64,000 bases of DNA from a virus. The notes below the pieces were generated by a model. That model saw nothing but the letters and a program-made list of their open reading frames with translations, made no database searches and was not told the origin of the DNA. Where the stretch lies: positions 1 to 64,000 of IMG/VR virus record IMGVR_UViG_3300046171_000314; one strand, 5' to 3'. The number at the start of each line of letters is the position of its first letter. Position 1 is the stretch's first letter. The translations under genes were made by a program, and so were the position numbers. This document shows positions 10,907 through 62,154 of this stretch, in pieces.

Positions 10907-11488
10907 ATGACGTACACTGATAAAATATTAGGCTTGATAGAAACAAAGGACTTGTTTAATGTCGAGCAAGCCTTTGCACTTGCGACAACTCTTTTGGAGA
11001 GTGGGGACATTTCAAAAGTTGATTTCAAGTTAATAAAGGGCGTTACAGAGTCCACCCTTAGGGACATAGAAGAGTCTTTGATATCAGAAGAAGAACGTAT
11101 GACTCTCAATTTGCAGTTCACTTTCAATGACCCTAATCACCAAGTAGATATATATGTACCTGCGTGGGTTATGTTGAATCTCACTCTGAAAGACCTTGAG
11201 GTGTCTGTCTTTCAGAAAAAGGGTATGCGATACGAGGTGTACGGTCTTGGGTATTCCTCACCGAAAAAATCATCGTTGAGCAGTAAAGATGTTCGCACAA
11301 TAGAGAAAAACAGAGGTTGGAAAAAAGCAACTCGAACTATTTCTCACGATAGAAATCTCAGCAAAAAAGCAGATGCCGCTGTCGTAGATATTATCCGAGA
11401 CTTAGAGAAAGTCCTTTCAAAGGACATGCAGATTATCGGCAAGAGAATATTAGAACAATACAGAACAGACCCCAAATGGTGGAAATAG
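10907..11488 (+). CDS. hypothetical protein with N-terminal QA-helix tag
   Basis: DKILGLIETKDLFNVEQAFALATTL; AGGAGG RBS. Confidence 0.7.
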   Translation: MTYTDKILGLIETKDLFNVEQAFALATTLLESGDISKVDFKLIKGVTESTLRDIEESLISEEERMTLNLQFTFNDPNHQVDIYVPAWVMLNLTLKDLEVSVFQKKGMRYEVYGLGYSSPKKSSLSSKDVRTIEKNRGWKKATRTISHDRNLSKKADAAVVDIIRDLEKVLSKDMQIIGKRILEQYRTDPKWWK

Positions 11489-11497
11489 GAGTAACTG

Positions 11498-12184
11498 ATG
11501 AAAAAAGCAAATACAGGTTGGACTTATGTTTCAACGGTTGAGTACGAGTTAATGACAGGAGCGGATGGGGCACACATTCACCGCAGACCGAAAGATGGTT
11601 CTCCTTATATACATCAAAAAGACATTGAGAGATACACCGAAAGCGACACGCTGTCTTGGCGAGACTACATTATGGACACTCCTGAATGGGATGAAGCCAT
11701 CCTAGATATAGAGAACTCTTATGACACAAGTGACAATGAGTATGATCTTAGGGTGAAGCGAATTATCTCTGTAACTGAGAGTGATTCCTATTACGATATG
11801 GAAGTTAGTGATAAAATGGCTGTATATAAGGCGAACTTATCTCCCCAAGAGCGGAAAAATTTGGAGAAAGTCGTAAGGTCTTTCGATGCAAGAAAAAGTC
11901 TTAAAGATTTGAAAGACACCTATAACAACTCCACTAAAAAACAAGCCGATGCGATACGGAGTTTGTTGGAAAGCCATACGGTTAGCGGAATCAACCAAGC
12001 CATCTCTCTCGCAGAGGCTCTTGAAGATAAGAAGATCAATGATATGATCAGGGATTTCTTATTAAAAAGTAGCGGTGACATAAACGAGGGCATTGTGGAT
12101 ATGACCGTTGAGATAGTGGTTGAGTGGGAGTTCGTGGTTCTTGGTCGTCTTATACCTTACGGAGAAGATTCCGAAGAATATTAA
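11498..12184 (+). CDS. hypothetical protein with C-terminal QA-helix tag
   Basis: KKQADAIRSLLESHTVSGINQAISLAEAL. Confidence 0.7.
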   Translation: MKKANTGWTYVSTVEYELMTGADGAHIHRRPKDGSPYIHQKDIERYTESDTLSWRDYIMDTPEWDEAILDIENSYDTSDNEYDLRVKRIISVTESDSYYDMEVSDKMAVYKANLSPQERKNLEKVVRSFDARKSLKDLKDTYNNSTKKQADAIRSLLESHTVSGINQAISLAEALEDKKINDMIRDFLLKSSGDINEGIVDMTVEIVVEWEFVVLGRLIPYGEDSEEY

Positions 12185-12199
12185 AGTGTCCGTAGGGTC

Positions 12200-12226
12200 T
12201 AACGTAAAATTTTGGCAATCGTATAG
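12200..12226 (+). promoter_or_regulatory. class A phage promoter motif
   Basis: TAACGTAA-N11-TCGTATAG. Confidence 0.8.
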
Positions 12227-12289
12227 GAAGTGTTGGAGAGGGGTGTCACCCTTTTCAATCCTTTAACCCTATTTCTTACGGAGGTCATT

Positions 12290-12514
12290 ATGAGGGTATA
12301 TATGGACTTAGACATGGTTATGGCATTGGAATTAACTTATTACGGAAAGGTCGGAGATGAAAGAGTCACTCTGACACCAAACGAACTGATAGAGTTGAGA
12401 GGTCCTTGGAAGGGATATGATGTCCGCCACATGGACTATTTCAGAATGGTCGGAATGGACACACCAATACTGTTATTGAACACAGGATTGGGATGGTTTG
12501 AAGCCCGAACTTAA
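12290..12514 (+). CDS. hypothetical protein
   Basis: GGAGGT RBS before ATG 12290. Confidence 0.6.
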   Translation: MRVYMDLDMVMALELTYYGKVGDERVTLTPNELIELRGPWKGYDVRHMDYFRMVGMDTPILLLNTGLGWFEART

Positions 12515-12613
12515 TTTTTCACATTTTCACACACCCTGTCTTTGGGTTTCGGTAACGGAACTTGAAGGCAGGGATTTTTTTTACATCCCCTTTAGACATT
12601 CAAGGAGTCTACT

Positions 12614-15076: not shown

Positions 15077-15077
15077 T

Positions 15078-17118: not shown

Positions 17119-17137
17119 GCTCCAAGGAACACTTGGG

Positions 17138-17150
17138 TAATTTGTTTATA
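17138..17150 (+). promoter_or_regulatory. class C promoter motif
   Basis: TAAT-TTGTT-TATA. Confidence 0.65.
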
Positions 17151-17181
17151 TTCAAATTAGAGTGTAAATGAGGTGTCCTCT

Positions 17182-17643: not shown

Positions 17644-18171
17644 ATGAAAGACAAACTCATTACATTACTCAATAAGGATAAAGCCCATTCTGTTCAGGCG
17701 ATGGAACTCAATAAGACTCTCGGATTACTTCAAAATAAGGAAATAGCCTCAATTCTTATGGCAAACCTGAAGCAAAGCGGTTGGGTTGTGTCGGAGATGC
17801 TCCAAAGGCTCGAAGACTTAGACGATGATTGGCATACCTTTTTACGGAAACGGAGGGGTGCTTCTTGGACTTTTGATTATGAGTCCAAAGACACAATACT
17901 TTCAGACTTTCCTTCTGTAACCCTTTATGGGGAAGTCGGAATGGGTCTTGAAGGTTCATCTTTGGAAGAGCATGGGAAAAATGTAGGCGAATTTCTTATT
18001 CTTGTAGAGAAACAAATATTGTCTTGGCTCTCAAAACGACCTTTAGTGAAGAGTGCCGACAGAACAATCTTATTAGAACCTGTATGTGATAGCGAGGGTT
18101 ATGGTTGGACTTTTTACATTGCTATAGAAATTGATTTCGATTCCCTCACACAACTTATTTTGGGGAACTAA
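17644..18171 (+). CDS. hypothetical protein with N-terminal QA-helix tag
   Basis: MKDKLITLLNKDKAHSVQAMELNKTLGLL. Confidence 0.7.
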   Translation: MKDKLITLLNKDKAHSVQAMELNKTLGLLQNKEIASILMANLKQSGWVVSEMLQRLEDLDDDWHTFLRKRRGASWTFDYESKDTILSDFPSVTLYGEVGMGLEGSSLEEHGKNVGEFLILVEKQILSWLSKRPLVKSADRTILLEPVCDSEGYGWTFYIAIEIDFDSLTQLILGN

Positions 18172-22988: not shown

Positions 22989-23015
22989 ATCCCCCTCTAG
23001 TAGGGGGATTTTTTT
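22989..23015 (+). terminator. intrinsic terminator
   Basis: ATCCCCCT-CTAGT-AGGGGGAT followed by a T-run. Confidence 0.75.
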
Positions 23016-23061
23016 GTACCAACAACAAACGAACCGAAGTTCTTTTCGGTATCACTTTTCA

Positions 23062-23121
23062 AGGGTACGAACAGCAAAACAATTTTTACTGATTCCATTA
23101 CATCAATACAAAACGTACCCT
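23062..23121 (+). ncRNA. stem plus CAGCAA RNA element, copy 2 (5' leader of the DUF2828 gene)
   Basis: AGGGTACG/CGTACCCT perfect stem; ACAGCAA at the same position as in copy 1; TTTCGGTA upstream. Confidence 0.55.
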
Positions 23122-23148
23122 GTACTCATTTCTTACTCGGAGGTCATT

Positions 23149-24519
23149 ATGCAAGCAGTACTCACACAAAACGGAGCGGTCACTAATGAAGAGAGTGGCT
23201 CTAGCCTCCTCGATATGTTCTTCTCAATTTCAAGTTATCGCTACAAAGGCTTAGAGGTTGCTGTGGGAGATTTTTGGAAGGCTTGGGAGGAAAACCAAAC
23301 ACTTGCTCTTAGGCTCTTATTCTATCTTCGTGATGTTCGTGGAGGTCAAGGTCAAAGACAAATGTTCCGAGATATTCTAAAAGACCTTGCATCAAAGATT
23401 GACCTTTCAGAAAAGTTTGTTCGTTGGATAGCCGATTATGGTCGATGGGATGACACCTTTGAATTGCTCGACACTATGAATGAGAGCAAACTTAAAACAA
23501 TCTTGGCTATTGAACTGACATTGGGAAACAAACTCCTTGCGAAGTGGATGCCTCGTGAGAAATCAGCGAAGAAGGAACTTGCGAAGAAACTTCGCAAACT
23601 CTTAGGCTTGTCTTCGAAGGACTACCGCAAACTTATTGCAGGAAACACTGAGGTAGTGGAAACACTTATGTGCTCTCAGCAATGGTCGGATATTGTGTAT
23701 TCCCACGTCCCATCGCAGGCAGGACTTCGATATAAAGGGGCATTCGCAAAGAGAGATGGGGAAAGATACCAAGCCTATGTTCAGAGTGTTCTAGATGGCA
23801 ATGCAGCCATCAAAGCAGGAACTTTGTACCCTCACCAATTGGTGGAGAAGTGTTTTGTAGGACAGTATGACAAAACTGTACAGGCAATGTGGGAAAATCT
23901 GCCCGATTACTTAGCAGGCACAGGGGAAAGTATTCTCCCTGTCGTAGATGTTTCAGGATCAATGTCAGGAAATCCTATGATAGTGGCGATTGCTCTTGGG
24001 ATATACCTTGCAGAAAGAAACGAAGGTCGCTTCAAGAATAAGTTCCTTACCTTTTCAGAAAGCCCACAATGGGCAAGTGTGCCCAAAGGGTCTTTGGATT
24101 TGAAGGTGCAGAAAGTTAGGCAAGCCGATTGGGGATATAACACTAACTTGGAGAAGACCTTTCATCTTATAAGAGACCTTGCGATTAAGAATCAAAGTGT
24201 TCCTGATAAGGTCATTATTTTATCCGATATGGAATTTGATGCGGCTTGTGAAGTCAGACAATCTTCAACTCAAACATTCTTTAAATCAATGAAAGCAATG
24301 TTTGCTCAGAAAAATCTCCAAATGCCTTCGATAATATTTTGGAACTTATCATCTAGATCGAACTACCCTGTTCGAGTGAATGAGTGGGGCACAGTTATGG
24401 TCAGTGGGTTTTCGCCAAGCATAATGAAACACATCTTGAAAGGTGGTGGAGAAATCACACCTTTCCAATTGATGTTGCAGGCATTAGGCTCAGATCGATA
24501 TGCTCAAATTTATTTGTAA
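23149..24519 (+). CDS. DUF2828-family TROVE-like/vWA protein
   Basis: LTQNGA; YLRDVRGGQGQR; YGRWDD; AKWMPRE; YSHVPS; GTLYPHQLV; VVDVSGSM MIDAS; LSDMEFD; IIFWNL; VSGFSP. Confidence 0.85.
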   Translation: MQAVLTQNGAVTNEESGSSLLDMFFSISSYRYKGLEVAVGDFWKAWEENQTLALRLLFYLRDVRGGQGQRQMFRDILKDLASKIDLSEKFVRWIADYGRWDDTFELLDTMNESKLKTILAIELTLGNKLLAKWMPREKSAKKELAKKLRKLLGLSSKDYRKLIAGNTEVVETLMCSQQWSDIVYSHVPSQAGLRYKGAFAKRDGERYQAYVQSVLDGNAAIKAGTLYPHQLVEKCFVGQYDKTVQAMWENLPDYLAGTGESILPVVDVSGSMSGNPMIVAIALGIYLAERNEGRFKNKFLTFSESPQWASVPKGSLDLKVQKVRQADWGYNTNLEKTFHLIRDLAIKNQSVPDKVIILSDMEFDAACEVRQSSTQTFFKSMKAMFAQKNLQMPSIIFWNLSSRSNYPVRVNEWGTVMVSGFSPSIMKHILKGGGEITPFQLMLQALGSDRYAQIYL

Positions 24520-26873: not shown

Positions 26874-26883
26874 GTTTTTTGGA

Positions 26884-26896
26884 TAATTTGTCTATA
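26884..26896 (+). promoter_or_regulatory. class C promoter motif
   Basis: TAAT-TTGTC-TATA. Confidence 0.65.
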
Positions 26897-26929
26897 AACC
26901 CTAAACGATAAAGACTTTGGGGGCATAAG

Positions 26930-27646
26930 ATGAAACTATTTATGAAAATGAACTCTCCTTTGCTGCAAGAGATTGTAAGCGATCAGGACTTCACAGATTC
27001 AGGTTGGTCTTGGTGGGAGGTTTGGGGAGAACACGCAGAGGTCATTGAAGAGTACTTTGGCATTAGAAACTTTTATGCAAGCGAAGACGACAGGTTTCTC
27101 ATCGATAAGAAAGAAACCTATATTGAGGTTAAAAAGGGCAAGGCGATACTAATGATATCAGGTGATATAGAATCGACATACAAGCACAGAGGGGCAACCA
27201 AGAACATTGGAAAAGTTATTACCAACAAATGCTTCAAAAAAGAATTAGATTGGCATTGGGATTTGCACGAGTGGACATCTGATGGGAAAACAACTGAGAT
27301 GACTTTTGGAGTGGGGAAAGATTACTCGGCTTCTTATGGTGACAACGAGAATTGGATCGCAAGAGTTGATGCCGTAGGCAAGGCAATGGAACTTCTCAGC
27401 CGATTTGAAAAGGTTAAGGGCAGACGAACCAAAGAGCAACAAGAGACCGCAGACCGAGAGAGTCAAAACTACCTTTCTAAACTGAAAGAAATGATTAATA
27501 CAGATGACCCTGCGAATATCAACCAAGCAATATCTCTTGCAGAGTCACTTGGTGTAATGGGAGAATTGAAGAGTGCTGTGGTATCCCAAGCCTACGCAAC
27601 CATTAAAAAAATGGGGATTAATCTCACAAAGATAGAGGGACTATAA
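26930..27646 (+). CDS. hypothetical protein with C-terminal QA-helix tag (paralog of 28084..28764)
   Basis: MKLFMKMNSP...ATKNIGK...NINQAISLAESLG...INLTKIEGL. Confidence 0.75.
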   Translation: MKLFMKMNSPLLQEIVSDQDFTDSGWSWWEVWGEHAEVIEEYFGIRNFYASEDDRFLIDKKETYIEVKKGKAILMISGDIESTYKHRGATKNIGKVITNKCFKKELDWHWDLHEWTSDGKTTEMTFGVGKDYSASYGDNENWIARVDAVGKAMELLSRFEKVKGRRTKEQQETADRESQNYLSKLKEMINTDDPANINQAISLAESLGVMGELKSAVVSQAYATIKKMGINLTKIEGL

Positions 27647-28074
27647 TGAGCATTAAAAGACACTTGAACGCACTGCTACATAGAACTCGTGGAGGACATT
27701 CTTTCCACAAGGTTCGTGAGAGCATAGCCAATATGGAAGAGCAAGAAGCACAAGAGTGGTATCGGTTTATCACCAATGCTGTGGAAGATGCCAAGATGCA
27801 AGCCAAGAACCAAGCAAGAAATCGTGGTGGGTTCTTTGCAAGCCAACAAAGAGTAGCCGCTCGATACCTTGATAAGGTATCATCTGAATTTTTGGGGGAA
27901 CTAGAGTACTATCCTGTAACAACACGAGGTCGAACCACCTACGAAGTCATTATAGAGTGGGCAGACGATAAGGTATGGAGAAGTAAAGAAGCAAAGGCTA
28001 TACAGAAAGACCTTGATGACACTCTTTATGATGCTTTAGCGAAATTCTCGAAGAAGCATCCTAGTCTAGGTTAA
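27646..28074 (+). CDS. hypothetical protein with internal RVA tag
   Basis: ASQQRVAARYLDKVS. Confidence 0.65.
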   Translation: MSIKRHLNALLHRTRGGHSFHKVRESIANMEEQEAQEWYRFITNAVEDAKMQAKNQARNRGGFFASQQRVAARYLDKVSSEFLGELEYYPVTTRGRTTYEVIIEWADDKVWRSKEAKAIQKDLDDTLYDALAKFSKKHPSLG

Positions 28075-28083
28075 GAATAAGAC

Positions 28084-28764
28084 ATGAAACTGTATATGAA
28101 AACGAACTCTCCTTTTTTGCAACCATATATTGATAACCTCGAAAATGTTGACGATTTTGATTTTTGGGCTGAGTGGTCAGATGAACATAAGAAATTTATC
28201 AATGATTACTATGGTGTTGAAAGGAACTCTGATCTTTCAATTGAGTTCCACATTAATCCAAAAGAGACTTACATTGATGCGTACTCAGGCGATCCTTTGA
28301 TAATTAGTGGGGTCTTTGAAGGAGTGTACAAATTCAAAGCCACAAAAAATATTGGAAAGCACGTAAGCAACAGATGTTTCAAAGATGAGATAGAATCTTG
28401 GAATTACTATGAGTGGTCTTCTGATGGAAAGACAGTTGAGTTATCTTATCAGGCACAGGTTGGATTTTACCTTGATGAGAGTTCTTATCCCAAGTCTCTG
28501 AAGAATGTTATTGCGGCAATGAAAACCCTTAAAGGGTTCGATAAGATTCGGGTTCAAGGGAAAGAGATTCGATTAAATAAAGAGCAGGAAAAGCAACTTG
28601 AAAAGTTGCGGACTCTTGCGAGTGACGAAGAGGGCTTGGCACAGGCGATTTCTCTTGCCGATGCTCTCGGATTAATGGGGAACTTGAAGAGTGAGATGAC
28701 CTCAGAGGCTTACGGGATTCTCAAAAAGAATGGGGTCAACATCACAAAGATAGAGGGCTTGTAA
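28084..28764 (+). CDS. hypothetical protein with C-terminal QA-helix tag
   Basis: MKLYMKTNSP...GLAQAISLADALG...VNITKIEGL. Confidence 0.75.
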   Translation: MKLYMKTNSPFLQPYIDNLENVDDFDFWAEWSDEHKKFINDYYGVERNSDLSIEFHINPKETYIDAYSGDPLIISGVFEGVYKFKATKNIGKHVSNRCFKDEIESWNYYEWSSDGKTVELSYQAQVGFYLDESSYPKSLKNVIAAMKTLKGFDKIRVQGKEIRLNKEQEKQLEKLRTLASDEEGLAQAISLADALGLMGNLKSEMTSEAYGILKKNGVNITKIEGL

Positions 28765-29328
28765 ATGAAAGTCTCAGCAATACGAGTTGCTTACCGATAT
28801 CTATCCGCAGATTTGTCCCCACCTTTAGGGGGTTCGGACAATCCCTGTGATGTTCTTAAGCGAATTGAGAAAGAAGTTTCTGATCCCCGTAACAAGAACA
28901 AACTGATTCGATTGGTGGAAGATGGCAAAGACCTGAGTAATCCTCAGGCTAATGTTGTTTATGATCTTGAAAGAGAGAAAGGCGTAGGCAAACTTAAATT
29001 CAAAAATATAGATATAACAGCACACGCTCAGTATCGAATGGACTTAAGGGGAGTGTCTGTTGCTGAGGTTCGGAGTGCTCTGTACTCTTTCCAAAAGAAC
29101 ATACAGGTTCAACGTTCTCAAAGAGGATGGTCTATGCTAGAAGAAAAATTGGAACGAGATGTTGTTTCATATACTGCCACCAATAAACTAAAAATAGTCT
29201 TTGAACCCTACTTAGATGGCAGAGGCAGAAATCTCCTTGATAGAGTGACAGGCTGTAAAATCATTACAGTATACTTTGAGGGTATAAATAACCCCACACC
29301 ACCTACCCTAGAGTCCTGTGGTCTATGA
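28765..29328 (+). CDS. RVA-tagged protein with DUF4258/BECR-like RNase-fold motif
   Basis: SAIRVAYRYLSA; ITAHAQYRMDLRGVS...KIITVY. Confidence 0.55.
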   Translation: MKVSAIRVAYRYLSADLSPPLGGSDNPCDVLKRIEKEVSDPRNKNKLIRLVEDGKDLSNPQANVVYDLEREKGVGKLKFKNIDITAHAQYRMDLRGVSVAEVRSALYSFQKNIQVQRSQRGWSMLEEKLERDVVSYTATNKLKIVFEPYLDGRGRNLLDRVTGCKIITVYFEGINNPTPPTLESCGL

Positions 29329-34297: not shown

Positions 34298-34779
34298 TAT
34301 CTTTTCTCGCCATCAAGAAAAGGAATCACATCGAGGCAAAAATCCTTGTAAAGTCGTTCTTTTATATCGGCAAGCCCTGCTGATTGGATGGCAGGAGCAT
34401 AGTCACTTTTATGCGTTTCCTCGAAGAAACTCTTCGGTGCGGTTATCGGAGTGTACTTAGAAGGAGATTCCCCCTTTGCCAACGTGTAGGGGGAAGTTGC
34501 ATACCAAAACTCTAATCCTGCTTTGTCTGCAAAAAACTCTGTAAGCGTTCCCATGATAGTATTTTTAAATATATCTCTACACTTACTAATCGCATCCTCA
34601 ACTTTCTTATTGAGATAAAATTTGCGGATGCTTCCAAGTTCTGCTTCAAAGGCTTTGTCTTTCTTTTCAGAGAGGGCTTGAAACAACTCCCACGCTTGGA
34701 GCATAGATTCACGATCTTGTGCCTTACAAGCCCTTACCCAAAGTTCTTTAATCTTTCTTTTATGAGAGTTCGTTAGCAT
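34297..34779 (-). CDS. QA-helix-tagged hypothetical protein
   Basis: HKRKIKELW...DRESMLQAWELFQAL. Confidence 0.7.
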   Translation of the reverse strand: MLTNSHKRKIKELWVRACKAQDRESMLQAWELFQALSEKKDKAFEAELGSIRKFYLNKKVEDAISKCRDIFKNTIMGTLTEFFADKAGLEFWYATSPYTLAKGESPSKYTPITAPKSFFEETHKSDYAPAIQSAGLADIKERLYKDFCLDVIPFLDGEKR

Positions 34780-34782
34780 TAT

Positions 34783-35202
34783 CTAGTAGCCCCCATCTTT
34801 GTAGGGAATTTCTTCGTAAGCAAGGGCTTTATAGAGTTCGTCTACTTGTTTTATCATAGGGCTTTTTTTCATTTCTTTGGCAACCTGTGCGAACAGAAAA
34901 TCAATCGAGTCTTTATAGTTCTCACTATCATTCGGAAAAGCATCGTGAAACAACATTGCACTATCCTCAGTGTACTCTACAATTTCCTTTTTCATAATTT
35001 TAAGAACCGCCTGTTCAATATTGGATGCCCATTCAATGGCGGATTCATTTCTAATTCGTCTAAGTTTTTGTTCTAACTTTTTGTCAGTAGGATCAATGGC
35101 TTGAAACAACTCCCAAGCCTGAATGAGGTCAGCCCTATTTCGCTTTTCAAGCCCCTCTATCCAAAGAGATAGGAGTTTGTCTTTCTGATCTTTTGTTAGC
35201 AT
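34783..35202 (-). CDS. QA-helix-tagged hypothetical protein
   Basis: QKDKLLSLW...NRADLIQAWELFQAI. Confidence 0.7.
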   Translation of the reverse strand: MLTKDQKDKLLSLWIEGLEKRNRADLIQAWELFQAIDPTDKKLEQKLRRIRNESAIEWASNIEQAVLKIMKKEIVEYTEDSAMLFHDAFPNDSENYKDSIDFLFAQVAKEMKKSPMIKQVDELYKALAYEEIPYKDGGY

Positions 35203-35226
35203 TGATATCTCCTGTATAAGGTTCTC

Positions 35227-35637
35227 TTACATATAAGGGGTCGGGATAATATCTCGAAAGAACCGTTTCTCTTCGTCTTTATTAAGGGCATCTATGAAAC
35301 GAGACATTTGTTGCGAAAACTTATCTGTTACTTCTTTTTTCATATGGGATTCTCGGTAATCGTGGTATCCGTACCAATTTCCTGCGATAACCATACTCCC
35401 CCAAGAGTCCCCATCAGGGTTTAGATAGAAGAGAGCCATCACAAGTTCTTTGTACTTTTTTTCCCACTTTGCCATCCAAGCATCCCAAATTTCAAAGGAT
35501 AGTTCGTGTATTTCTTCTAAGGTTAATCCATCTTTTCCAAGTGCTTGATTCAACTGCATAGCCTGTGAAGCAAGAGAGCGATCATTTTTTTTATAGGCAT
35601 CAAAGAACAACCTTTCGAGTTTCTTTTTATCTGACAT
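35227..35637 (-). CDS. QA-helix-tagged hypothetical protein
   Basis: DKKKLERLF...DRSLASQAMQLNQAL; class C motif at 35673-35685. Confidence 0.7.
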   Translation of the reverse strand: MSDKKKLERLFFDAYKKNDRSLASQAMQLNQALGKDGLTLEEIHELSFEIWDAWMAKWEKKYKELVMALFYLNPDGDSWGSMVIAGNWYGYHDYRESHMKKEVTDKFSQQMSRFIDALNKDEEKRFFRDIIPTPYM

Positions 35638-40303: not shown

Positions 40304-40669
40304 TTACCGACCACTTTCAAATTCTTGATCGAAAGCCTTGACTAGCAAAGGAGTCATATTCTCAATCCCTTTTAGAACCATCGTGTTTATGGCTGTGTAA
40401 ACCTTGTCTTTCAAAGAATCTTGTTCGAGAGGGCTTCCTTGAGAGATTGTTGAGAAAATGGCTAGATAAAGTTCTCTCTTAACCCCCTCATTCAACAGAG
40501 CACTTGCCACCTGCTCCATTCCTCCTGTGTCCCAATTTTCAAGAATGGTCTCATCTTCTTTTGTCTCAGGGTAGTGGTGTGTCATTATTCCCTTCTTTGT
40601 TTTACACACCTCGACACGAATATGGGCAAGAGCATATTCGTCGTGTACTCCGTGTTTTTTATCTAACAT
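40304..40669 (-). CDS. hypothetical protein
   Basis: GAGGTG RBS before ATG 40669. Confidence 0.6.
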   Translation of the reverse strand: MLDKKHGVHDEYALAHIRVEVCKTKKGIMTHHYPETKEDETILENWDTGGMEQVASALLNEGVKRELYLAIFSTISQGSPLEQDSLKDKVYTAINTMVLKGIENMTPLLVKAFDQEFESGR

Positions 40670-40719
40670 TTTATCACCTCTATTTTTATATGAACCACAA
40701 TACCCAACATAGGGTTGAA

Positions 40720-40732
40720 TAATTTGCCTATA
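40720..40732 (+). promoter_or_regulatory. class C promoter motif
   Basis: TAAT-TTGCC-TATA. Confidence 0.65.
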
Positions 40733-40760
40733 CTTAAGGATTTGCAAAAACGGACAAGTA

Positions 40761-43382
40761 ATGACTCCTTCTGAAATAGCAGAAATCTCTAAGTATATGA
40801 CTATTTGGTTCAAGAAAACCCCGATGGGGTATTCTGATTTCAGGGAAGTTCCCACTAAATATGCTTTGGATATTTTTGATAAGATTAAGAAAGGCTCTGC
40901 CTACGATGTCGTTATTGATGAAGAGTTTGGAAAGGGGTTTTCGGAATACTTAAGAGAAGCAATGAAAACTATTGAAGAAATCCCAAAGCAGGCTTCTATT
41001 GATAAGTTTGGTTGAGGCGAGCAAGAACATCACGAGTTGCGTGATAATGGTGAATGGGAACATTACTTTGAAGATTGGGAAAAAGAATTAGGAATACAGG
41101 ATATGCGAAAACAAGCAAGCAGCGATGAAAAGGAACTTCGGAATATTTTCCGTTTGTTGCAACAACAGTTCGGCTCTGCCAATCGATGGAATCAATCGGG
41201 CTTTGAAGATCAATATGTTTCTATCGAAAAAGGAATACTACTGTTCTCTTACACAACAGGTCTTCGTGGAGAGGACTTAGATAACTCCGACTTAGAAGAT
41301 GATATCCGAATAGACAATAAAAAACAGGTCGAAAAGTTTTTGAAGTCAAAGGGCTATGACTTTGTTCTTGAATGCACAAACCCTTATTGTGATACCTTCA
41401 TGCTGACCTTGAAAGGCAAAGAGTGGATGAAAAAATACAACCCCAAGTATGCCAAGCAAGCAAAAGATGAGTGTTCCGACAAGAATAAAACAATGGAATA
41501 TGTCAAATGCCGAGCCGAGAAGATGGAGAAGGAACAAGGGTATCCTGTAGATAAAGCCTTCGCTACCGCTTGGTCAATCGCCTGTAAGCACAAGAAACTG
41601 CCTGACTCAAAAGAACACTGTCAAAAGAAACCTTCTGAATACTTTCCTAAAAAGAAAAAAGCATCCAATGGAGAAATCAATATGAAAAAATTAACTGCCA
41701 ACGACTTGATGTCCTCTGAGGACTATCAAGAAATACTCGCTGAAGAAATGACAGCACGGTTTGAAAAAGGTAAGCCTGCCGACCCAACTGAAAATATGTC
41801 TCCCGAACAAAAAGAAGAGTGGGAAGCCCAAAAGGAAAAGAACAAAGACAACTTCAAGAAGGCAGGCAAAGGTTTGTCCGAGAACGAGATGTTAGATCTC
41901 CTTGATGAATTGGGGTACTCCACAGAAGATTTTGAAGATGATGCCAAACTCCTTAGAGAGTATGCTTCTAATGAAGGGTATGAACAAAAGGGAGACAAGT
42001 TCCATAAAATCAAAGGCAAGAAAGCCGATGACTTGATGTCCGCAGAAGATTTTGAAGAAGTGCTTGCAGGGCATACTCCTGAGTCGTTCAAGAAAATGAT
42101 GAAAGATAATCCTGAACTTGCAAAGAAGTTTAAAGATGAAGAAGTCAATAAAGACAATTACGAAGAAAAATTGAAAGGCAAGAAAGCAGGACAATCTGTT
42201 CGTGAAAGTGAGATGGATATCGGTACTGTTTATGTTGGAACTTTCGGTCACCAAACTTGGCACTTCAAGCCCACCGCTGCGGCTGCTAAGAGCGGCAAGG
42301 TCAAAGGGTTGATAATGGGCTATGGGGAGAAGAAACCCAAGACCGCTTTCATTGGAAAGAAGACAGGTTATGATGGGGTCAAGTGGGAAGAAGCAAGTGA
42401 TGTTCCTGCTAAAATGAAATCTGCTGCAAGCATGACACCACAGCAAAAGAATATTCTGAAAACCATTTCTGAACTTGGCAAGAAGACTCCTCTTAGAAAA
42501 GCCTTTAAGTTGGATATCGAATACGCAACCTCTTGGGGCATTTCAGTAACCATTAAAGATGCCATCCCAAAGCATACAGTATCTAAATTAGATATCACCT
42601 ATATGAGCGAACCTGACTTTTTGTACTACACAATCATAGGTGCAAATGAAGAGGAAGAATACATAGAGGTGAGAAAAGCAGGAGCATTGATTGAAGCAGG
42701 GGATATGAGTGCCCTAGCAAATCCGCTTCTAAAAGGACTTAGAAAGTTCCAATCGAGATCTGCTGCCGAAGATATTATGGCAGGACACACGCCTGAATCC
42801 TTTAAGAAATGGTGCAAGGACAATCCTGATGCTTGTGCTGAGTGGGAAGAGAACACCGAGAAATATAAAGATGTCGTGAAAGACCAAAGTAAGAAAGCAT
42901 CTCCTATTGGAAAGGGCAAGATGGGTTATGTCGCCTTTTGGATAAAGGGTCGTGATGGTTCTGACCGAGTTGAAATTATGGCAGACAGTAAGTATGAGGC
43001 ACAACAGTTGGCAGTAGCATACTTTCAAAAAACCACACGCAAAAAAGTGAAAGGCTTTGATATCGCTATTGAACTTGCCGATACCCCTATCTCTACTCAA
43101 CACCTTGCAAACAAGGAAGCAGATTGTGGTTGTGAGGGATACCAAGTGTTCTATGTTCAACCTGAGCAACACGAACACTTTGATGCTTACGAGCCTGAAT
43201 ACTTTGCTCCTGAGCCTGAGCCTTATTCGCCACTAGATATGTCTATGTACGAACAAATGTTGGGCTTGCCTCGATTTGCGACACAACAAAAGATCGCTGA
43301 TGCCGAGCAATTAATAAAAGATAATGATGCCCTGTTGGAAGTGCTAGAAGCACAGACCGACATGATCAATAAACTATTTTAA
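40761..43382 (+). CDS. large modular (polyprotein-like) probable virion protein; in-frame TGA at 41013-41015
   Basis: ORFs 40761..41015 and 41037..43382 are in the same frame; modules are separated by KQA/KKA/KSA/RSA sites; internal repeats AGHTPESFKK x2 and DLMSxEDxxExLA x2. Confidence 0.65.
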
Positions 43383-45114: not shown

Positions 45115-45690
45115 ATGAGAAAACGACTTACTTGGAAAAAGAAAGCCACCACCAACACAGATCAGTTTGTTGAAAAACAAGCAGGATCAGGAATGTATGG
45201 CTCAACCAAAGCAATCGAGAGTTCTGTTCTTGCTAGTGTCCGTAAAATACAAAAGAGAGCCGATAAAATCGCAAAGGCGTTGTACAAGAAAAATGCAAAG
45301 ACCGCACAGTTCTTGGCAACACACTCAAAGCGTTCTAAGTCTTCCTCTGCAAAAGTGATTATGGATGCGATGGCGAATCTCGGACCTAAGTTCGCTGCTG
45401 ACAAAACAGCAGGACACGGAATGTATGGATACGAATCGAAAGTAGCCGCACTTTGTCTTGCAGGTTGCACAGAACTTAAGCAATATGTCGGTGAGGTCGT
45501 GTCCGACCTGCACAGAAGAAAAGCCGCAAAGCACGCCAATGTTATGTCCTTCTTGAAAACTCACAAGAAGGAAGCCAAGTGTGATTGTTCTTCAATGATG
45601 CTTTCTTACTACCCTGATGCGAGTACCAAGTTCGCTAGCAACACCCCCAAGACCGTAAGCGATTGGATTAAATGGGAGGATTGGAAATGA
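45115..45690 (+). CDS. probable virion protein with duplicated KxAGxGMYG module
   Basis: KQAGSGMYGS and KTAGHGMYGY repeats; KKKAT and KFAS sites. Confidence 0.65.
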   Translation: MRKRLTWKKKATTNTDQFVEKQAGSGMYGSTKAIESSVLASVRKIQKRADKIAKALYKKNAKTAQFLATHSKRSKSSSAKVIMDAMANLGPKFAADKTAGHGMYGYESKVAALCLAGCTELKQYVGEVVSDLHRRKAAKHANVMSFLKTHKKEAKCDCSSMMLSYYPDASTKFASNTPKTVSDWIKWEDWK

Positions 45691-46265
45691 ATCAAAAAGA
45701 CAAATTACTGACCCTTGCTCGCCATGCCCGTAATAGTCGTGATTGGGAAACCCTTGAACAAGTGAAAATGCTCAATGAAACCTTGAATCTACTCTCCGAA
45801 AATGAAGAGGGTCTTCTTCATTGGGGTGTTTATGCTAAGTGGATAGCCCTTGCTATGAACTCAAACTTTTTCCACCACCTACGAGATTACAAGAAATACA
45901 ACTTGGGTGTGACCTTTTCAAGTGCAGGACAAGTCCTTGTAAGAGAAATTGTAGATCCCGACAAGGCTAAAAAGTTTTATGACTTAGGGTATGACATTAT
46001 CGAACTACAATTTGTTGCTTCCAACGTTATTCCTGAAGAATATCTTAGACGAGATTGGGATGACAAGATACTCGATGAGATAAGCGAAATTGAGAGTAAT
46101 GTAAAAGAAGCGGTCTCTACTTTTATGTCTGATATTGAGCAATTTGCGGAAACCTACGGGTGGATGAAATGTCGGCAAACAAAAATCTATGTTTCTTCTC
46201 GAAGGGAGTATGGCACGAATATAGTTCTCGAAACGGGAATCTCTCTCAAAGAAACCCTCAAATAG
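45687..46265 (+). CDS. QA-helix-tagged hypothetical protein
   Basis: QKDKLLTLAR...DWETLEQVKMLNETLNLL. Confidence 0.7.
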   Translation: MNQKDKLLTLARHARNSRDWETLEQVKMLNETLNLLSENEEGLLHWGVYAKWIALAMNSNFFHHLRDYKKYNLGVTFSSAGQVLVREIVDPDKAKKFYDLGYDIIELQFVASNVIPEEYLRRDWDDKILDEISEIESNVKEAVSTFMSDIEQFAETYGWMKCRQTKIYVSSRREYGTNIVLETGISLKETLK

Positions 46266-46269
46266 GAGA

Positions 46270-46848
46270 TTGGAAGTGAAAAATAAATTAATAGAATTGG
46301 CGAGGGGTGCGAAAGAGCAAAGAGACAAAGGTATCTTGGAGCAAGCACAGATGCTGAATGAGTCTTTGAATCTGTTTTCAGAAGAAGAGAAGATAAAATA
46401 CTTCATTTGGGATGTAGATAAGCAATGGGAAGCCTCAGGGTATCAAAGAAAACTCGAAGCCCTTGCAAAGAAGTTCGCAACAGGAGAAAGGGAGGTCATC
46501 TTTTATGGTGACTATGATAATACAGCAGAATTAGAAATAACTCTGAGACTCTATGATTATGTTCCTGATAAAGTCATTGACACATATATGGAAAATCCCA
46601 AATATGGAATGTATGAACTAGAAGAAACGAAACTTTGGGAGAAGACAGGGGCAAGGTTAAAAAAACAAGCCGAAGGATTTATCAAAGATATTGTTTCGGT
46701 GTTTAGTAATTCCGATCTCTATGATATAAAGTTCAAAGGAAGTAGGATTAGACCACGAAATATCCTTGTAAGGCGTGTCGAAGGATACTATGCAGGAGAT
46801 TATGACGCAGGGCTTTTATTATCTTTCGATATTGAGATTAAGGAATAG
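46270..46848 (+). CDS. QA-helix-tagged hypothetical protein
   Basis: KNKLIELAR...DKGILEQAQMLNESLNLF. Confidence 0.7.
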   Translation: MEVKNKLIELARGAKEQRDKGILEQAQMLNESLNLFSEEEKIKYFIWDVDKQWEASGYQRKLEALAKKFATGEREVIFYGDYDNTAELEITLRLYDYVPDKVIDTYMENPKYGMYELEETKLWEKTGARLKKQAEGFIKDIVSVFSNSDLYDIKFKGSRIRPRNILVRRVEGYYAGDYDAGLLLSFDIEIKE

Positions 46849-49076: not shown

Positions 49077-49486
49077 GAGTTCTTATCGTCTCGCAACTTA
49101 TCAAGGTTGTCAAGATACGGTGGTGATTTGACTTTGTAATCCCAAAGCCAAGCCCATCGTTTTCTCGTTGCAAGATACTCTAAGTTAGAGTCATTGACAT
49201 ATGCCTCTTGTTCGGCTCGGATACAATAGTAGGAGATGTTCCCTTGCTTATGTATCAACAGACCAATGAACCAATCCCATAGATACACAAACCAAAAGCC
49301 AATAAAGAACAGGTCAAGGTATTGTTGGTAGTGAATGGTTTCGTGGTTGCGGAGTTTCTCATCCATCTCACCACGAGCGATAACGACAAAGCCTAACGTG
49401 ATAGCCCCAATGGTGATAGGGGATACCTTACTTAGCCACACAGGTATGCGACTATTCTCAATAAATATGGGTTTCCAATTTTTCAA
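49073..49486 (-). CDS. HExxH membrane-associated zincin-like protein
   Basis: GAITLG...RNHETIHYQQ...EQEAY. Confidence 0.7.
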   Translation of the reverse strand: MKNWKPIFIENSRIPVWLSKVSPITIGAITLGFVVIARGEMDEKLRNHETIHYQQYLDLFFIGFWFVYLWDWFIGLLIHKQGNISYYCIRAEQEAYVNDSNLEYLATRKRWAWLWDYKVKSPPYLDNLDKLRDDKNS

Positions 49487-49899
49487 AATACAAATCCTCC
49501 ATCTGATCCCTCTTGGATTACATCAAAGGCATAATCCAAAAGACTCAAAATCTGTTTCTGTTGTTTTCCTATTAAGGATTGCATATCGACTATCAAATGA
49601 TTGATAGTGTTTTCGTAAATCTTCGCATCCCCAATGTATGATAAAAGAGTATCGTTCAAGGCGTTCTCAAAGTCAAATCTTGGTGCTACGGTGGAAGCGA
49701 TGTTCCACGCATCGTTTTCTGCGTGGTTACGTCTGACATTTAACAAATGTCGTTCAAAATCTAAATCTCGACCATCCTCAGAAAGAGCCTCTATAAGAGA
49801 AGCCACTTGCAAAAGAGCCTCTCGGTTTTTATTTTTTAGACCTCTTTTCCAAATGGTGAATAGTTTCTTTTTGTGTTCTTGACTAATTGGTTTTTGCAT
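49483..49899 (-). CDS. QA-helix-tagged hypothetical protein
   Basis: HKKKLFTIW...NREALLQVASLIEAL; class C motif at 49926-49938. Confidence 0.7.
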   Translation of the reverse strand: MQKPISQEHKKKLFTIWKRGLKNKNREALLQVASLIEALSEDGRDLDFERHLLNVRRNHAENDAWNIASTVAPRFDFENALNDTLLSYIGDAKIYENTINHLIVDMQSLIGKQQKQILSLLDYAFDVIQEGSDGGFVF

Positions 49900-49943
49900 T
49901 AGGAACTCCTTTCTACTTTATAGAATATAGAAAGAATAAAAAG

Positions 49944-59610: not shown

Positions 59611-59647
59611 CTATCCCCCCTTTCTGTGATTTGCAAGATTAAGGTGT

Positions 59648-59676
59648 ATTGTAAGAGAATAGGTCTTGACTGTCAA
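59648..59676 (-). promoter_or_regulatory. host sigma70-type promoter
   Basis: TTGACA-N17-TACAAT. Confidence 0.8.
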
Positions 59677-59694
59677 AGATTTTAATCAAGATTA

Positions 59695-60054
59695 TCAGTT
59701 AGCCTTTGGCATAAAAAGCCCAAACAATTTCGCCATTTCAGTAACCATTTCGTCATAGTGAGTGAAAATCCAAAACATAAGAATTACCCCTTGTTCTGAT
59801 ACTGTTGCAAAAACAGAGTCCTCCCATTCTTCTTTGGGCGGAAGATCCTTTAGTGCTTCCTCATTGTCCGTTAAGCACTCCAACATAACAAACCACATAC
59901 TTTGCCCCATCAGGTCACCATTACGGAATAGGATCTTACTGCCGCCTTTTAGTACTGCCTTGTGCTTAACCTCCCAACTGATCATTGTTGCCAATGCTGT
60001 TTCAATGGCTGATTTTACTGATTTATATTCGTCTTCTTCCACAGAAGCCCCCAA
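59695..60054 (-). CDS. hypothetical protein (start uncertain)
   Basis: non-overlapping part of ORF 59695..60321. Confidence 0.45.
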   Translation of the reverse strand: MGASVEEDEYKSVKSAIETALATMISWEVKHKAVLKGGSKILFRNGDLMGQSMWFVMLECLTDNEEALKDLPPKEEWEDSVFATVSEQGVILMFWIFTHYDEMVTEMAKLFGLFMPKAN

Positions 60055-60109
60055 CGTTAATCTTTGTATACTTAGGAGGGTATATCTAAGGATTATCAAA
60101 GGATATGAA

Positions 60110-60757
60110 ATGAAAAAAAATGTCTTGGATAAGGGCTTTGTATCCCTTGTCGATTCGATGGGCAGTGACCTATCCGTAGTAAACTCCGCTAGAGTTTCGT
60201 TTGGAAAGAGAACTGAAAAGATGCGACCTCGTGATGAGAAACTTGTCAAGTACCTTTGGGAGCACAAACATAGTTCTCCTTTTCGACACGCAACTTTGCA
60301 GTTCCATATCAAAGCACCCATTTTTGTTCTCCGACAATGGATGAAACATCAGGTGGGGTGTTCTTGGAATGAGGCGAGCGGCAGATACATAGAGTTCGAA
60401 GGAGATTTTTATCATCCTGAAACATATCGACTTCAAAGTTCCGACAACAAACAAGGCTCGCATGGGCAGATACCAAAACAAGATCAAGCAAAAACCATTT
60501 ACGAAACATGTATGGTGTATGCTCTTAGAGATTACACACGATTACTTGAACTTGGTGTGTGTAAAGAACAGGCTCGTATGGTGTTGCCTCTTTCCCTTTA
60601 CACTGAATGTTATTGGACTTGCTCCCTCCAAGCCCTGATACACTTCCTTTCTTTAAGAGAAGATTCGCACTCTCAGTGGGAGATACAAGAGTATGCTCGT
60701 GCGGTAAGAGAGTTAGTAAAAGAGTTATTTCCTGTGTCCTTAAACTTAGGTCAATAA
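60110..60757 (+). CDS. thyX: FAD-dependent thymidylate synthase
   Basis: VNSARVS; HSSPF; RQWMKH...WNEASGRY; KEQARMVLP; HSQWEI. Confidence 0.95.
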   Translation: MKKNVLDKGFVSLVDSMGSDLSVVNSARVSFGKRTEKMRPRDEKLVKYLWEHKHSSPFRHATLQFHIKAPIFVLRQWMKHQVGCSWNEASGRYIEFEGDFYHPETYRLQSSDNKQGSHGQIPKQDQAKTIYETCMVYALRDYTRLLELGVCKEQARMVLPLSLYTECYWTCSLQALIHFLSLREDSHSQWEIQEYARAVRELVKELFPVSLNLGQ

Positions 60758-60794
60758 CTCTCCTATATTTACAGAGGAAATGAAAGGAGAGCAT

Positions 60795-61109
60795 ATGCAC
60801 GGACTACATACAACGGCTTGGGTCTTCGATACAACTGATTACAAAGCAATCAAAGTTATCGACCAATACAGAGATGCAGACCACGCTCTTGCAGGTGCTT
60901 TAAGGATTATCAAAGGCATTATGGAAGAGGTTGTTTCAGAATACACCATTACTTTTTTGAATGATGATGTTGTAATAGGTGGAGAACTCATCAGGGGTAT
61001 TTGCGTGACCGTTGAAGATGCTCCTGTTGGAACTTTTGTGCCTCAGACAGAACTTGAAGAACCCTTCCAACTCGTCGTAGATGGGGAAGAGCACTTTTAT
61101 TTATATTAG
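60795..61109 (+). CDS. hypothetical protein
   Basis: AGGAG RBS; class C motif at 60755-60767. Confidence 0.6.
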   Translation: MHGLHTTAWVFDTTDYKAIKVIDQYRDADHALAGALRIIKGIMEEVVSEYTITFLNDDVVIGGELIRGICVTVEDAPVGTFVPQTELEEPFQLVVDGEEHFYLY

Positions 61110-61118
61110 GAGAAAACT

Positions 61119-62154
61119 ATGAGTTTAGCGGAGAAAATTCTTGATTGTGATGACCTCATTACTTGGGATTCAGGAAGCATTTCAAGAGAAGATGCTATCG
61201 AAGAGATTGAAGATGCTTTAGACAACAGCCCTTATGGGGGTTATGGGTACAGCCTCAACTCAAAAGATTTGATTTATGTTGAAAAAAAATTGGGTTGGCT
61301 CAGACACCGTACTCATTTTTGAAGACATGGAAGATGCCGAGAAAGAAGCCAAAGAGTATTGGAGAGACTCCTTAGAAGGAGACTCAGGTCTTGTCAATAT
61401 GGAAGAGGCAGGTCGCAATGGGTTCTTGAACAAGTCACACAAAGAAGTTGAAGATGATTGGGTTGAGGGAGAAGTCGAGACATATCAAAAAGACCCTGAT
61501 GATGCTATCTCAGACTTTCAAAGCCTCTCTGATAAAAATGATGAATGGACAGAAGAGATCGAAAGCATTGAAGAAGAACTCGATAACATTAACGATGGTT
61601 GGGATGAAATCAAATATCTTATGAAAGGGATGAGAAAGCCTAAGGAAAAGCCAAGTAGAAAGTCCATCTCACACGGAGAGAAGATTACAGTACTTTTGAT
61701 GTCTGATGACGCAGGTAAAAGACAAGCGGTTGAACTTTTAGAAGCCCTTGCCGATATAGATGAGAATGATCCACAAGAGGTTGCGGATCTCTACGGAATG
61801 TTAGACAAAGCCTATGACACTATGAAAGATGCTTACGATGAGAAAGACGATGAACTAACAGATAAGAAAGATGATTACAAAGATTGGTATCAAAATGACC
61901 TTATCGATCTCATTGCTGATGAAGTAGAAGATCAGGTAAGATCCGACATTCAAATGAACTATCACGGTGATATGTTCTCTTATCTCACTATGCACTACGG
62001 TTTAGATGAAGAAAATGTAATTGAGAATTACTATAATGGCATCGACTATGAAGCCTATGCCGAGCACATCGTAGATCACGGTGGTGCAGGCACTCTGAAC
62101 TCTTATGATGGGAACATTTACGAAGAGTGTGGATTAGTTTGGTTACTCTTTTAG
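61119..62154 (+). CDS. very acidic protein with internal QA-helix tag (frameshift in A-run ~61282-61289)
   Basis: removing one A joins 61119..61322 to 61276..62154; EKITVLLMSDDAGKRQAVELLEAL. Confidence 0.6.

Follow-up and report, generated by a model that had tools for sequence, protein, structure and literature searches.

The genome of an uncultured marine phage (IMG/VR record IMGVR_UViG_3300046171_000314, 148 kb) encodes a set of proteins that look unrelated but repeat one short helical element. Is this element a true module, and what could so many different proteins gain from it? The window analyzed here, positions 1-64,000 of the record, was compared with the rest of the record and with relatives. 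The element, termed the QA module, consists of two helices in about 35-40 residues and occurs on about 16 otherwise unrelated phage proteins. Helix A has the signature K-[LI]-x-x-L-[LI] and helix B the signature [IL]-x-Q-A-x-x-L-x-x-x-L, with a short loop between them that usually contains an Asp. In alignments across families, the Gln and one Leu are invariant and the Lys is nearly invariant. The hairpins are amphipathic, and in helix B the hydrophobic positions occupy a broad face. The loops differ in length by 4-5 residues, some carriers having a long-loop variant. The module profile revealed one copy per carrier and no array.

An earlier note, made from the letters of the window, had listed 12 carrier genes, and these were present as described, together with the peptides it quoted. 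They are given below; left-out values are profile scores in bits with the superfamily of the carrier removed, set against noise where available. Genes are named by either end coordinate.

10907..11032, plus strand: QA module, N-terminal, gene 10907-11488 (193 aa); HMM 44.5 bits; left-out 9.6 vs noise 4.1
11933..12049, plus strand: QA module, C-terminal part (aa 146-184), gene 11498-12184 (228 aa); HMM 45.1; left-out 16.4 vs 3.4
17644..17757, plus strand: QA module, N-terminal, gene 17644-18171 (175 aa); left-out 26.8 vs 2.4
27458..27595, plus strand: QA module, C-terminal part (aa 177-222), gene 26930-27646 (238 aa); left-out 25.3 vs 3.0
28582..28713, plus strand: QA module, C-terminal part (aa 167-210), gene 28084-28764 (226 aa); left-out 25.0
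34636..34773, minus strand: long-loop QA module, N-terminal, gene 34297-34779 (160 aa); HMM 54.1; left-out 11.1 vs 2.9
35059..35196, minus strand: long-loop QA module, N-terminal, gene 34783-35202 (139 aa); left-out 9.3; AlphaFold2 model
35503..35637, minus strand: long-loop QA module, N-terminal, gene 35227-35637 (136 aa); left-out 8.7 vs 2.9
45687..45824, plus strand: QA module, N-terminal, gene 45687-46265 (192 aa); left-out 18.3 vs 5.0
46273..46410, plus strand: QA module, N-terminal, gene 46270-46848 (192 aa); left-out 11.3 vs 5.0
49744..49887, minus strand: long-loop QA module, N-terminal, marginal, gene 49483-49899 (138 aa); left-out 5.9 vs 2.9
61660..61794, plus strand: doubtful internal QA-like segment, ORF 61276-62154 (pI 4.1); left-out 4.5 vs 4.2

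The starts of 10907, 35637 and 45687 were read by eye, and each has a ribosome-binding site. The last entry had been described as an internal copy in a gene at 61119. The segment exists, but the gene is in fact two overlapping ORFs, 61119-61322 and 61276-62154, which meet at an A8 run (61282-61289), and the copy in the second ORF was inseparable from noise on cross-validation (4.5 vs 4.2 bits).

An HMM built from the 12 reported segments scored those segments at 40-54 bits and detected five extra carriers elsewhere in the record (70057, 103917, 130468, 133343 and 134617) at 18-24 bits. The best remaining protein of the proteome reached only 4.6 bits. Control maxima were 3.0 bits for the reversed proteome and 6.7 bits for 10 shuffled proteomes, and all non-members, controls included, stayed at or below 7 bits. 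In the cross-validation each superfamily in turn was left out of the profile, and the best non-member then scored 2.4-5.0 bits. Left-out scores were 16-29 bits for 70057, 17644, 103917, 26930, 28084, 130468, 133343, 45687, 11498 and 134617, and 8.7-11.3 bits for 46270, 34297, 10907, 34783 and 35637. Clear separation from the best non-member was thereby obtained for 15 of the 17 copies, with 49899 marginal (5.9 vs 2.9 bits). The earlier note had proposed such a profile as a check, and the score gap, the shuffled and reversed controls and the left-out recoveries set most of the segments apart from generic helices. Judged from these profiles, the QA element is real, specific and portable as a module, and not a generic amphipathic helix.

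The module is also rare. Among 1.84 billion library representatives, only 34 matched at E<=1e-3, of which three were repeat-protein artefacts and about nine were the record's own proteins. No match was found in 855 kb from five distantly related phage records, and in 275 kb of other loci matches occurred only in loci chosen via module-bearing proteins. Scanning all carriers against Pfam and PHROGs returned no family; the QA module is a protein family for which neither collection had a matching model. The weak family matches on the QA region were DUF7185, DUF7674 and IDEAL (E 0.01-0.1). Two ESM Atlas queries gave no usable match.

Two helices joined by a short turn, with a Q-A pattern loosely like Cro-/cI-type recognition helices, bring a DNA-binding helix-turn-helix to mind. 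This reading is extremely improbable. No Pfam helix-turn-helix family matched any carrier even at E<=1, and a canonical helix-turn-helix does not tolerate a loop that varies by 4-5 residues. The net charge of the module averages -0.9 (range -6 to +3), helix B being almost free of basic residues. The carriers themselves are mostly acidic, as had been noticed before: 14 of 17 have a pI of 4.1-5.9, compared with a proteome median of 6.9.

The likeness of the modules is not visible at the DNA level. Nucleotide identity between families averages 43% and reaches at most 56%, and identical residues use the same codon in only 36% of cases. DNA-level recombination or gene conversion was rejected as the source of the likeness because of this low average identity. 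The comparisons indicate that the module is conserved by selection at the protein level. In most homologous pairs, orthologous or paralogous, the module was more conserved than the payload, a comparison biased by the recruitment of homologues with the module profile.

Could the carriers nevertheless be one conventional paralog family, diverged beyond recognition except in the most constrained helices? Real paralogs do exist among them. The 26930 and 28084 proteins are full-length paralogs (40% identity, E 2e-50), and 34297, 34783 and 49483 cluster together in full-length BLAST; the full-length alignment of 35637 and 134617 with this cluster was seen by eye only. The adjacent genes 45687 and 46270 are equal in length. 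Overall, 14 full-length families were distinguished. With hhalign, all 190 payload profile pairs remained below 5% probability, the best being 103917 and 17644 at 4.6%, although the thin payload alignments give such profile-profile comparisons low power. About 9-14 payload families were left without a mutual relationship detectable by hhalign. Hence the earlier claim that the rest of each protein is unrelated largely held, but not for the BLAST cluster and the two proteins aligned with it by eye. The position of the module varies as well: it is N-terminal in 10 carriers, in the C-terminal part of four (11498, 26930, 28084 and 130468) and further inside in two or three, as in 70057, where it spans residues 37-66 of 290. 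The payloads are between about 95 and 260 residues long, and in relatives the module is fused to LRR arrays. Taken with the payload profiles, this variation argues against a single paralog family, which we regard as very unlikely. Domain shuffling has placed the mini-domain on at least nine unrelated payloads in this phage, and on further payloads, including LRR binders, in relatives.

The LRR fusions were seen in P0015, P0032, P0046 and a gene of contig L026 (L026:6545-7261), with the module N-terminal in these proteins. In P0015 and P0032, Pfam found LRR families only, and about 40 residues separate the module from the first LRR. The N-terminal segment of P0015 is 46% identical to the 17644 module over an alignment that includes the post-hairpin stretch. 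Searches with the LRR-type N-terminus and with a mixed profile added only a handful of LRR proteins. The P0032 gene has rho-like and prfA-like neighbors, and it is probably cellular rather than phage; a P0032 search of genome contigs found no relative. The payloads of the relatives P0006 and P0040 are 75-84% identical to the 45687 payload. In L026, a close relative, a 240-bp gap follows the 45687 counterpart, and no gene was called at the 46270 position. The set of QA-tagged proteins differs in this relative.

The AlphaFold2 model of the 34783-35202 protein had a mean pLDDT of 86.8 and a pTM of 0.74. Helices spanned residues 4-20, 23-36 and 41-88, and pLDDT was 95-97 over residues 1-60. The QA module is confidently predicted to be an alpha-hairpin, from which the same chain continues through a turn into a long third helix. 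Three-helix mini-proteins and fragments of TPR proteins could be superposed on residues 1-55/59 of the model at 2.4-2.7 Å, with Z-scores at noise level. The wide VIA-align search peaked at Z 6.8, which helical models reach by noise, and Foldseek found nothing at E<=0.001 in PDB and BFVD. A PDB sequence search with the QA profile returned nothing significant, the best match being the TPR-like 2kc7 (E 0.09).

This arrangement suggests that the hairpin might be a structural cap, a TPR/HEAT-like folding nucleus that stabilizes the next helix and was copied because it folds well, without a common partner. The direct continuation into a long helix, modeled with very high confidence, speaks for it. 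So do the weak profile similarities of the module, which are to TPR/HEAT repeat proteins (P0024, P0026, 2kc7 and alphaRep), the significance of multi-repeat proteins such as P0026 arising by summing many weak matches. Like TPR and HEAT-like (PBS lyase/alphaRep) units, the module is an antiparallel pair of helices, about 34 residues in all, in which a small residue (Ala) sits where the helices touch. Its N-terminal placement in LRR proteins, where helical caps are common, and the probably cellular P0032 also fit. However, TPR and HEAT proteins are repeat arrays, whereas the QA module is always single and has its own Q and K signature. Pfam scans of the 17 carriers and nine relatives at E<=0.1-1 found no TPR family, and no carrier had a HEAT match. 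An invariant Gln and a near-invariant Lys across unrelated proteins exceed what hydrophobic packing needs. A useful general cap would be expected to be widespread, contrary to the extreme rarity in the library, and the QA genes are concentrated in one promoter class, as described below. A purely structural role is unlikely in our judgment.

The amphipathic surface, with hydrophobic residues over the wide face of helix B, would also suit pairing between the hairpins of different carriers, for example in four-helix bundles, to give mixed accessory complexes. Tagged genes often stand in tandem (10907/11498, 34779/35202/35637, 45687/46270 and 133343/134617), in keeping with such pairing. The confident monomer model counts against it, and an oligomerization handle appears distinctly unlikely.

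A promoter-like motif, GATAAT-N4-CTATA(A/T), had 34 matches in the phage record at a position weight matrix (PWM) cut-off of 12. It heads the terminase-containing unit, units in the portal and tail regions, and the QA units. The copies at QA units in the window were as follows.

10867..10883, plus strand: motif of this class, 38 nt upstream of 10907; PWM 22.0
17136..17152, plus strand: motif of this class, heads 17173 (RVA tag) and 17644 (QA); PWM 23.5
26882..26898, plus strand: GATAAT-N4-CTATAAA, heads unit 26930-29328; PWM 30.0, best in the genome
35672..35690, minus strand: weaker variant AATAGT-N4-CTATAC, heads 35637, 35202 and 34779; found by eye and pattern search, below PWM 12
40718..40734, plus strand: motif of this class, heads small ORF 40761-41015 and the run through 45687 and 46270; PWM 20.4
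49924..49940, minus strand: motif of this class, heads 49899; PWM 19.0
60753..60769, plus strand: weak copy, heads 60780, 61119 and 61276; PWM 12.6

Twelve of the 17 QA genes lie at most two genes from a motif, compared with 48 of 201 other genes (Fisher p=1.4e-4). Since the QA units are headed by the same motif as virion genes, the QA proteins are probably made late, a timing read from this common motif only.

The RVA-tagged genes that are interleaved with 26930 and 28084 have only that tag in common. The earlier note had held that no QA carrier bears the RVA tag. This is true of the 12 window genes but not of the whole genome: 130468 carries the QA module together with RVA-type motifs at residues 10 and 213. 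Binding of an RVA helix by the QA hairpin was considered and set aside, the four adjacent QA/RVA gene pairs not being significantly more than the 1.7 expected (P=0.10). The 130468 model, made to see RVA helices packing on the hairpin, was unreadable (mean pLDDT 52).

What, then, might the module do? Our tentative reading, to which we give slightly less than an even chance, is that the QA module is a mobile mini-domain, specific to the lineage, that serves as a common docking handle for accessory proteins. The earlier note had proposed a docking or oligomerization tag, a reading that the results support in part. As such an adaptor, it would bring variable proteins, produced under the motif of the virion gene units, to one shared partner late in infection. 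The putative partner would most plausibly be a component of the assembling particle, and loading of the carriers into the virion is plausible. Some observations count against a docking handle. The third helix directly after the hairpin in the model means that the hairpin could be a purely structural element, and the net charge of about -1 is unlike that of the basic P22 coat-binding hairpin. Moreover, a capsid-specific address makes little sense for P0032, because that protein is probably cellular.

Two known systems come close to the docking handle in different ways. The capsid targeting sequence (CTS) of T4 is a leader of about 10 residues, placed strictly at the N-terminus and cut off by the prohead protease, and Alt carries it too. 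T4 internal proteins are a diverse set with only this sequence in common (PMC3012670). Like the QA module, the CTS of IPI, IPII and IPIII is one short element on diverse, fast-evolving, late accessory proteins, and it is portable to foreign cargo. Unlike the CTS, the QA module forms a folded hairpin, about 35 residues long, with no evident cleavage site, and it is not confined to the N-terminus, as 11498, 26930, 28084, 130468 and 70057 demonstrate. The phage record does contain a head maturation protease gene (116836-118293).

The coat-binding element of P22, at the C-terminal end of the scaffolding protein, is basic, acts electrostatically and serves as a portable encapsidation tag. Inside the procapsid, the P22 scaffolding protein binds coat via this 36-residue helix-turn-helix (residues 268-303), whose charged residues are highlighted in a review (PMC9962691). 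It matches the QA module in having two helices and about 36 residues. However, it is present on one protein only, whereas the QA module occurs on many non-scaffold proteins and is near-neutral to acidic, not basic. Large phages carry, inside the virion, many late accessory proteins whose function is unknown (PMC5694885, PMC7411985). It was proteomics and propeptides cut by a protease, not a common helical hairpin, that revealed the inner-body proteins of SPN3US and phiKZ-like phages, and PHROGs revealed no homology of QA carriers to these giant-phage ejection or inner-body families.

A further step would be modular addressing, in which the folded 35-residue hairpin, as a transferable ticket, would admit a variable set of effector payloads, LRR binders among them in relatives, to the assembling particle for delivery to the next host. 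This putative system is somewhat doubtful; it may be distinct in form from both the T4 leader peptide and the P22 scaffold hairpin. If the QA module is a docking handle, about 8% of the genes in this phage fragment would form one co-regulated functional class that is otherwise unannotatable, and related marine phages could be screened for such proteins with a simple sequence signature. The module would also represent a second, structurally different answer to the problem that T4 meets with the CTS, and possibly a small natural tag by which foreign proteins could be packaged into phage particles. Should its role be only structural, the module is still a clear example of the shuffling of a very small domain between phage genes that are otherwise unrelated.

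The twelve genes of the window for which the earlier note had claimed a two-helix module all translated as described, and the peptides it quoted were present. Alignment of the twelve segments by their Q-A pair gave a consistent block of some 36 columns with the pattern K-[LI]-x-x-L, a variable-length loop usually containing Asp, and then [IL]-x-Q-A-x-x-L-x-x-x-L. The HMM of this QA module scored 40-54 bits on its own twelve seeds. In the same genome outside the window it scored 18-24 bits on the products of five genes (70057, 103917, 130468, 133343 and 134617, named by their coordinates in the record), and no other protein of the genome exceeded 4.6 bits. Control scores peaked at 3.0 bits in the reversed proteome and 6.7 bits in ten shuffled proteomes. 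Since the seeds match their own HMM by construction, the superfamilies were merged conservatively, each was removed in turn, and the model was rebuilt.

Recovery of module copies after removal of their own superfamily
Clearly recovered: ten members, 16-29 bits, best non-member at most 5 bits
Moderately recovered: 46270, 34297, 10907, 34783 and 35637, 8.7-11.3 bits
Marginal: 49899, 5.9 bits, best non-member 2.9 bits
Indistinguishable from non-members: internal copy 61276, 4.5 versus 4.2 bits

Matches elsewhere were rare. Among 1.84 billion representative proteins, 34 matched at E<=1e-3, about nine of which were proteins of this record itself. Three were rejected as long-repeat artefacts (a low-complexity repeat, an NB-ARC/TPR protein and a HEAT-repeat protein), and the others were small orphan proteins from marine metagenomes and two LRR proteins. 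A separate scan of DNA recovered 17 of 17 copies in the phage's own record, whereas five distant relatives, 855 kb in total, gave no match. Other loci amounting to 275 kb had matches only where a locus had been fetched via a module-bearing protein. The score gap, the clean controls and the rarity of library matches thus separate the segments from generic amphipathic helices, so the module passes this refutation test set by the earlier note. The module is a real, reproducible feature, a small protein domain without a match to any Pfam or PHROGs model.

A main rival explanation is that the carriers form one hyper-diverged paralog family, and some of them are real paralogs. Full-length BLAST clustering placed the 17 carriers in 14 families. 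The minus-strand genes 34297, 34783 and 49483 (the latter also 49899) formed a single cluster, with which 35637 and 134617 aligned full-length by eye, and 26930 and 28084 shared 40% full-length identity. The tandem minus-strand genes 34297 (34779), 34783 (35202) and 35637 all have a long-loop module and share a C-terminal F-x-D-[IV]-I-P; the 49899 product ends in a looser F-D-V-I-Q. The sequences suggest that the minus-strand genes from 34297 to 35637, together with 49899, belong to a single small superfamily in which both ends are conserved and the middle varies. A stretch of about 55 residues preceding the module is also shared by 130468 and 28084. Against a single family, all 190 of 190 pairs of payloads (carriers with the module removed) remained below 5% hhalign probability with profiles built from the few available homologues, the top pair being 103917 and 17644 at 4.6%. 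The module also sits at different places in its carriers, which speaks against simple paralogy. It is N-terminal in 10 carriers and lies in the C-terminal part of four (11498, 26930, 28084 and 130468). Copies deeper within the chain are those of 70057 (residues 37-66 of 290) and the relative P0029 (residues 225-260 of 362), and the doubtful one of 61276. The payloads thus probably do not form one family; with the paralogous groups allowed for, a fair count of independent payloads in the record is about nine. In the gene that holds the 61276 copy, two ORFs in different frames, 61119-61322 and 61276-62154, overlap at an A8 run (61282-61289), and no ribosome-binding site precedes the downstream ORF. 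The cause is a sequencing error in the homopolymer or else programmed slippage, by which the two ORFs would yield a single acidic protein of some 345 residues.

The module-coding DNA was poorly conserved between families (mean identity 43%, maximum 56%), and codons agreed at only 36% of identical residues, which excludes recent gene conversion or a DNA-level element. Among 24 aligned sequences, the Q and one L were invariant and the K nearly so. The module was more conserved than the payload in most homologous pairs, a comparison biased because the homologues were found with the module profile.

The record is a single virus sequence of 147,878 bp, about 56% complete (CheckV), of which the window makes up the first 64 kb. 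No similar DNA was found when a phage collection was searched with the record DNA, and the nearest IMG/VR contigs have a terminase identity of just 56-67%. Its recognizable virion genes outside the window, where tail-like genes also occur, are as follows.

105881-107698, large terminase gene
108820-110505, portal gene
116836-118293, head maturation protease gene

Within the window, 23014-24519 strongly matches PHROG 850 'RNA-binding protein' (E 3e-133), and two minus-strand genes at 992-3646, which we take to be a CobS/CobT-like pair, match phrog_249 ('porphyrin biosynthesis', E 3.5e-17) and phrog_1576 (unknown function, E 8e-21).

Upstream of tagged genes, roughly 35-50 nt ahead of start codons, lies a bipartite motif, GATAAT-N4-CTATA(A/T). 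Twenty clear copies were used to build a PWM, which at a cut-off of 12 bits had 34 matches in the record, mostly intergenic.

Motif sites in the window and at the head of units elsewhere
10867, tagged unit
17136, tagged unit
26882, tagged unit
37599, minus strand
39016, minus strand
40718, tagged unit
48237
48266, minus strand
49940, minus strand, tagged unit
60753, tagged unit
70015, tagged unit
99781, tagged, terminase-containing unit
111401, portal-region unit
112210, portal-region unit
132912, tagged unit in the region of tail-like genes
135025, 137893, 139954 and 145467, units in the same region

Of the 17 tagged genes, twelve lay within two genes of a motif; among the other 201 genes, 48 did (Fisher p=1.4e-4). 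This placement supports the earlier note's statement that the module genes sit in class C units. Automatic assignment put 15 of 17 in motif units, a count that includes the 35637 trio, headed by a weaker variant that was added by hand. Genes 45687 and 46270 join a motif unit if the small ORF 40761-41015 behind the 40718 motif is accepted. This plus-strand ORF of 84 aa lies 41 nt downstream of a strong late-type motif and would be the first in a unit reaching 46848; the minus-strand ORF called at 40304-40855 probably starts at an internal Met. We infer that the motif-headed units are expressed late, because they are associated with virion genes and CTATAAA resembles the T4 late promoter. The module is shuffled among unrelated phage genes with the promoter motif of virion genes.

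A second motif, the RVA tag R-[VIL]-A-x-x-[YW], occurred in 11 proteins, often near a terminus, against about 1.25 expected from shuffled proteomes.

RVA genes in the window: 17173, 27646, 28765, 48283, 50628 and 56981
RVA genes outside the window: 97289, 100418, 116324, 129417 and 130468

The claim that no carrier has this tag held for 12 of 12 carriers in the window but failed outside it, where 130468 has the RVA motif at both ends plus the QA module. Genes of the two kinds are interleaved at 26930-29328 and side by side at 17173/17644; adjacent pairs were not significantly enriched (4 versus 1.7 expected, P=0.10).

LRR arrays, too, carry the module, in the library protein P0015 and its relatives P0045-P0048. 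LRR proteins with an N-terminal module were encoded on three contigs that appear phage-derived.

L026:6545-7261
L007:3640-4422
L025:10001-10828

When N-termini of the LRR type were aligned with those of 17644 and 103917, the post-hairpin stretch included, identity was 46-51%. One gene of the P0015 group adjoins a 3,575-residue ORF without a Pfam match, at a locus that looks phage-like, and the L026 gene adjoins an SNase-family gene. L026 is a close relative whose 45687 counterpart is 75-82% identical; it has no gene called at the 46270 position and has additional tagged genes, so the tagged proteins are an accessory set that varies. P0032, another LRR protein with the module, is probably cellular; in six marine contigs its neighbors are rho-like and prfA-like genes.

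We modelled 34783 from a 24-row alignment of full-length relatives and module segments of other families (mean pLDDT 86.8, pTM 0.74; residues 1-60 pLDDT 95-97). The predicted helices spanned residues 4-20 (A), 23-36 (B), 41-88 (C), 94-113 and 115-126, so the module is modelled as an α-hairpin with a long third helix after it. Nearly every carrier has a turn and an amphipathic stretch behind the module, so this arrangement may be general. Foldseek searches of PDB and BFVD with the model returned nothing at E<=0.001, and VIA-align gave Z at most 6.8, noise level for helical models. Residues 1-55/59 superposed at 2.4-2.7 Å on designed three-helix mini-binders and pieces of TPR proteins, with noise-level Z-scores. 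The model of 130468 was unreadable (pLDDT 52). A DNA-binding helix-turn-helix would also be a short pair of helices; this is unlikely because no HTH profile matched, helix B lacks a basic character, loops differ in length and the carriers are acidic.

Two other main rivals concern what the hairpin does: it could be a purely structural helical cap, or a handle by which tagged proteins oligomerize with each other. The hairpin keeps its polar residues conserved while the rest of it varies, is confined to one promoter class and is rare outside the lineage. These features favor a specific shared contact over mere packing, and a docking handle is a reasonable inference. Two precedents are similar in kind. 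The T4 internal proteins are a diverse set with only a capsid targeting sequence in common (PMC3012670), and the P22 scaffolding protein docks to coat by a 36-residue helix-turn-helix (PMC9962691). However, the QA module is not strictly N-terminal, is not basic (mean net charge -0.9) and has one apparently cellular carrier (P0032), which counts against equating them. The findings agree with a folded, transferable adaptor domain set on a variable group of late accessory proteins. Components of the assembling particle would be candidate partners, and we hypothesize that the tagged proteins may be loaded into the virion.
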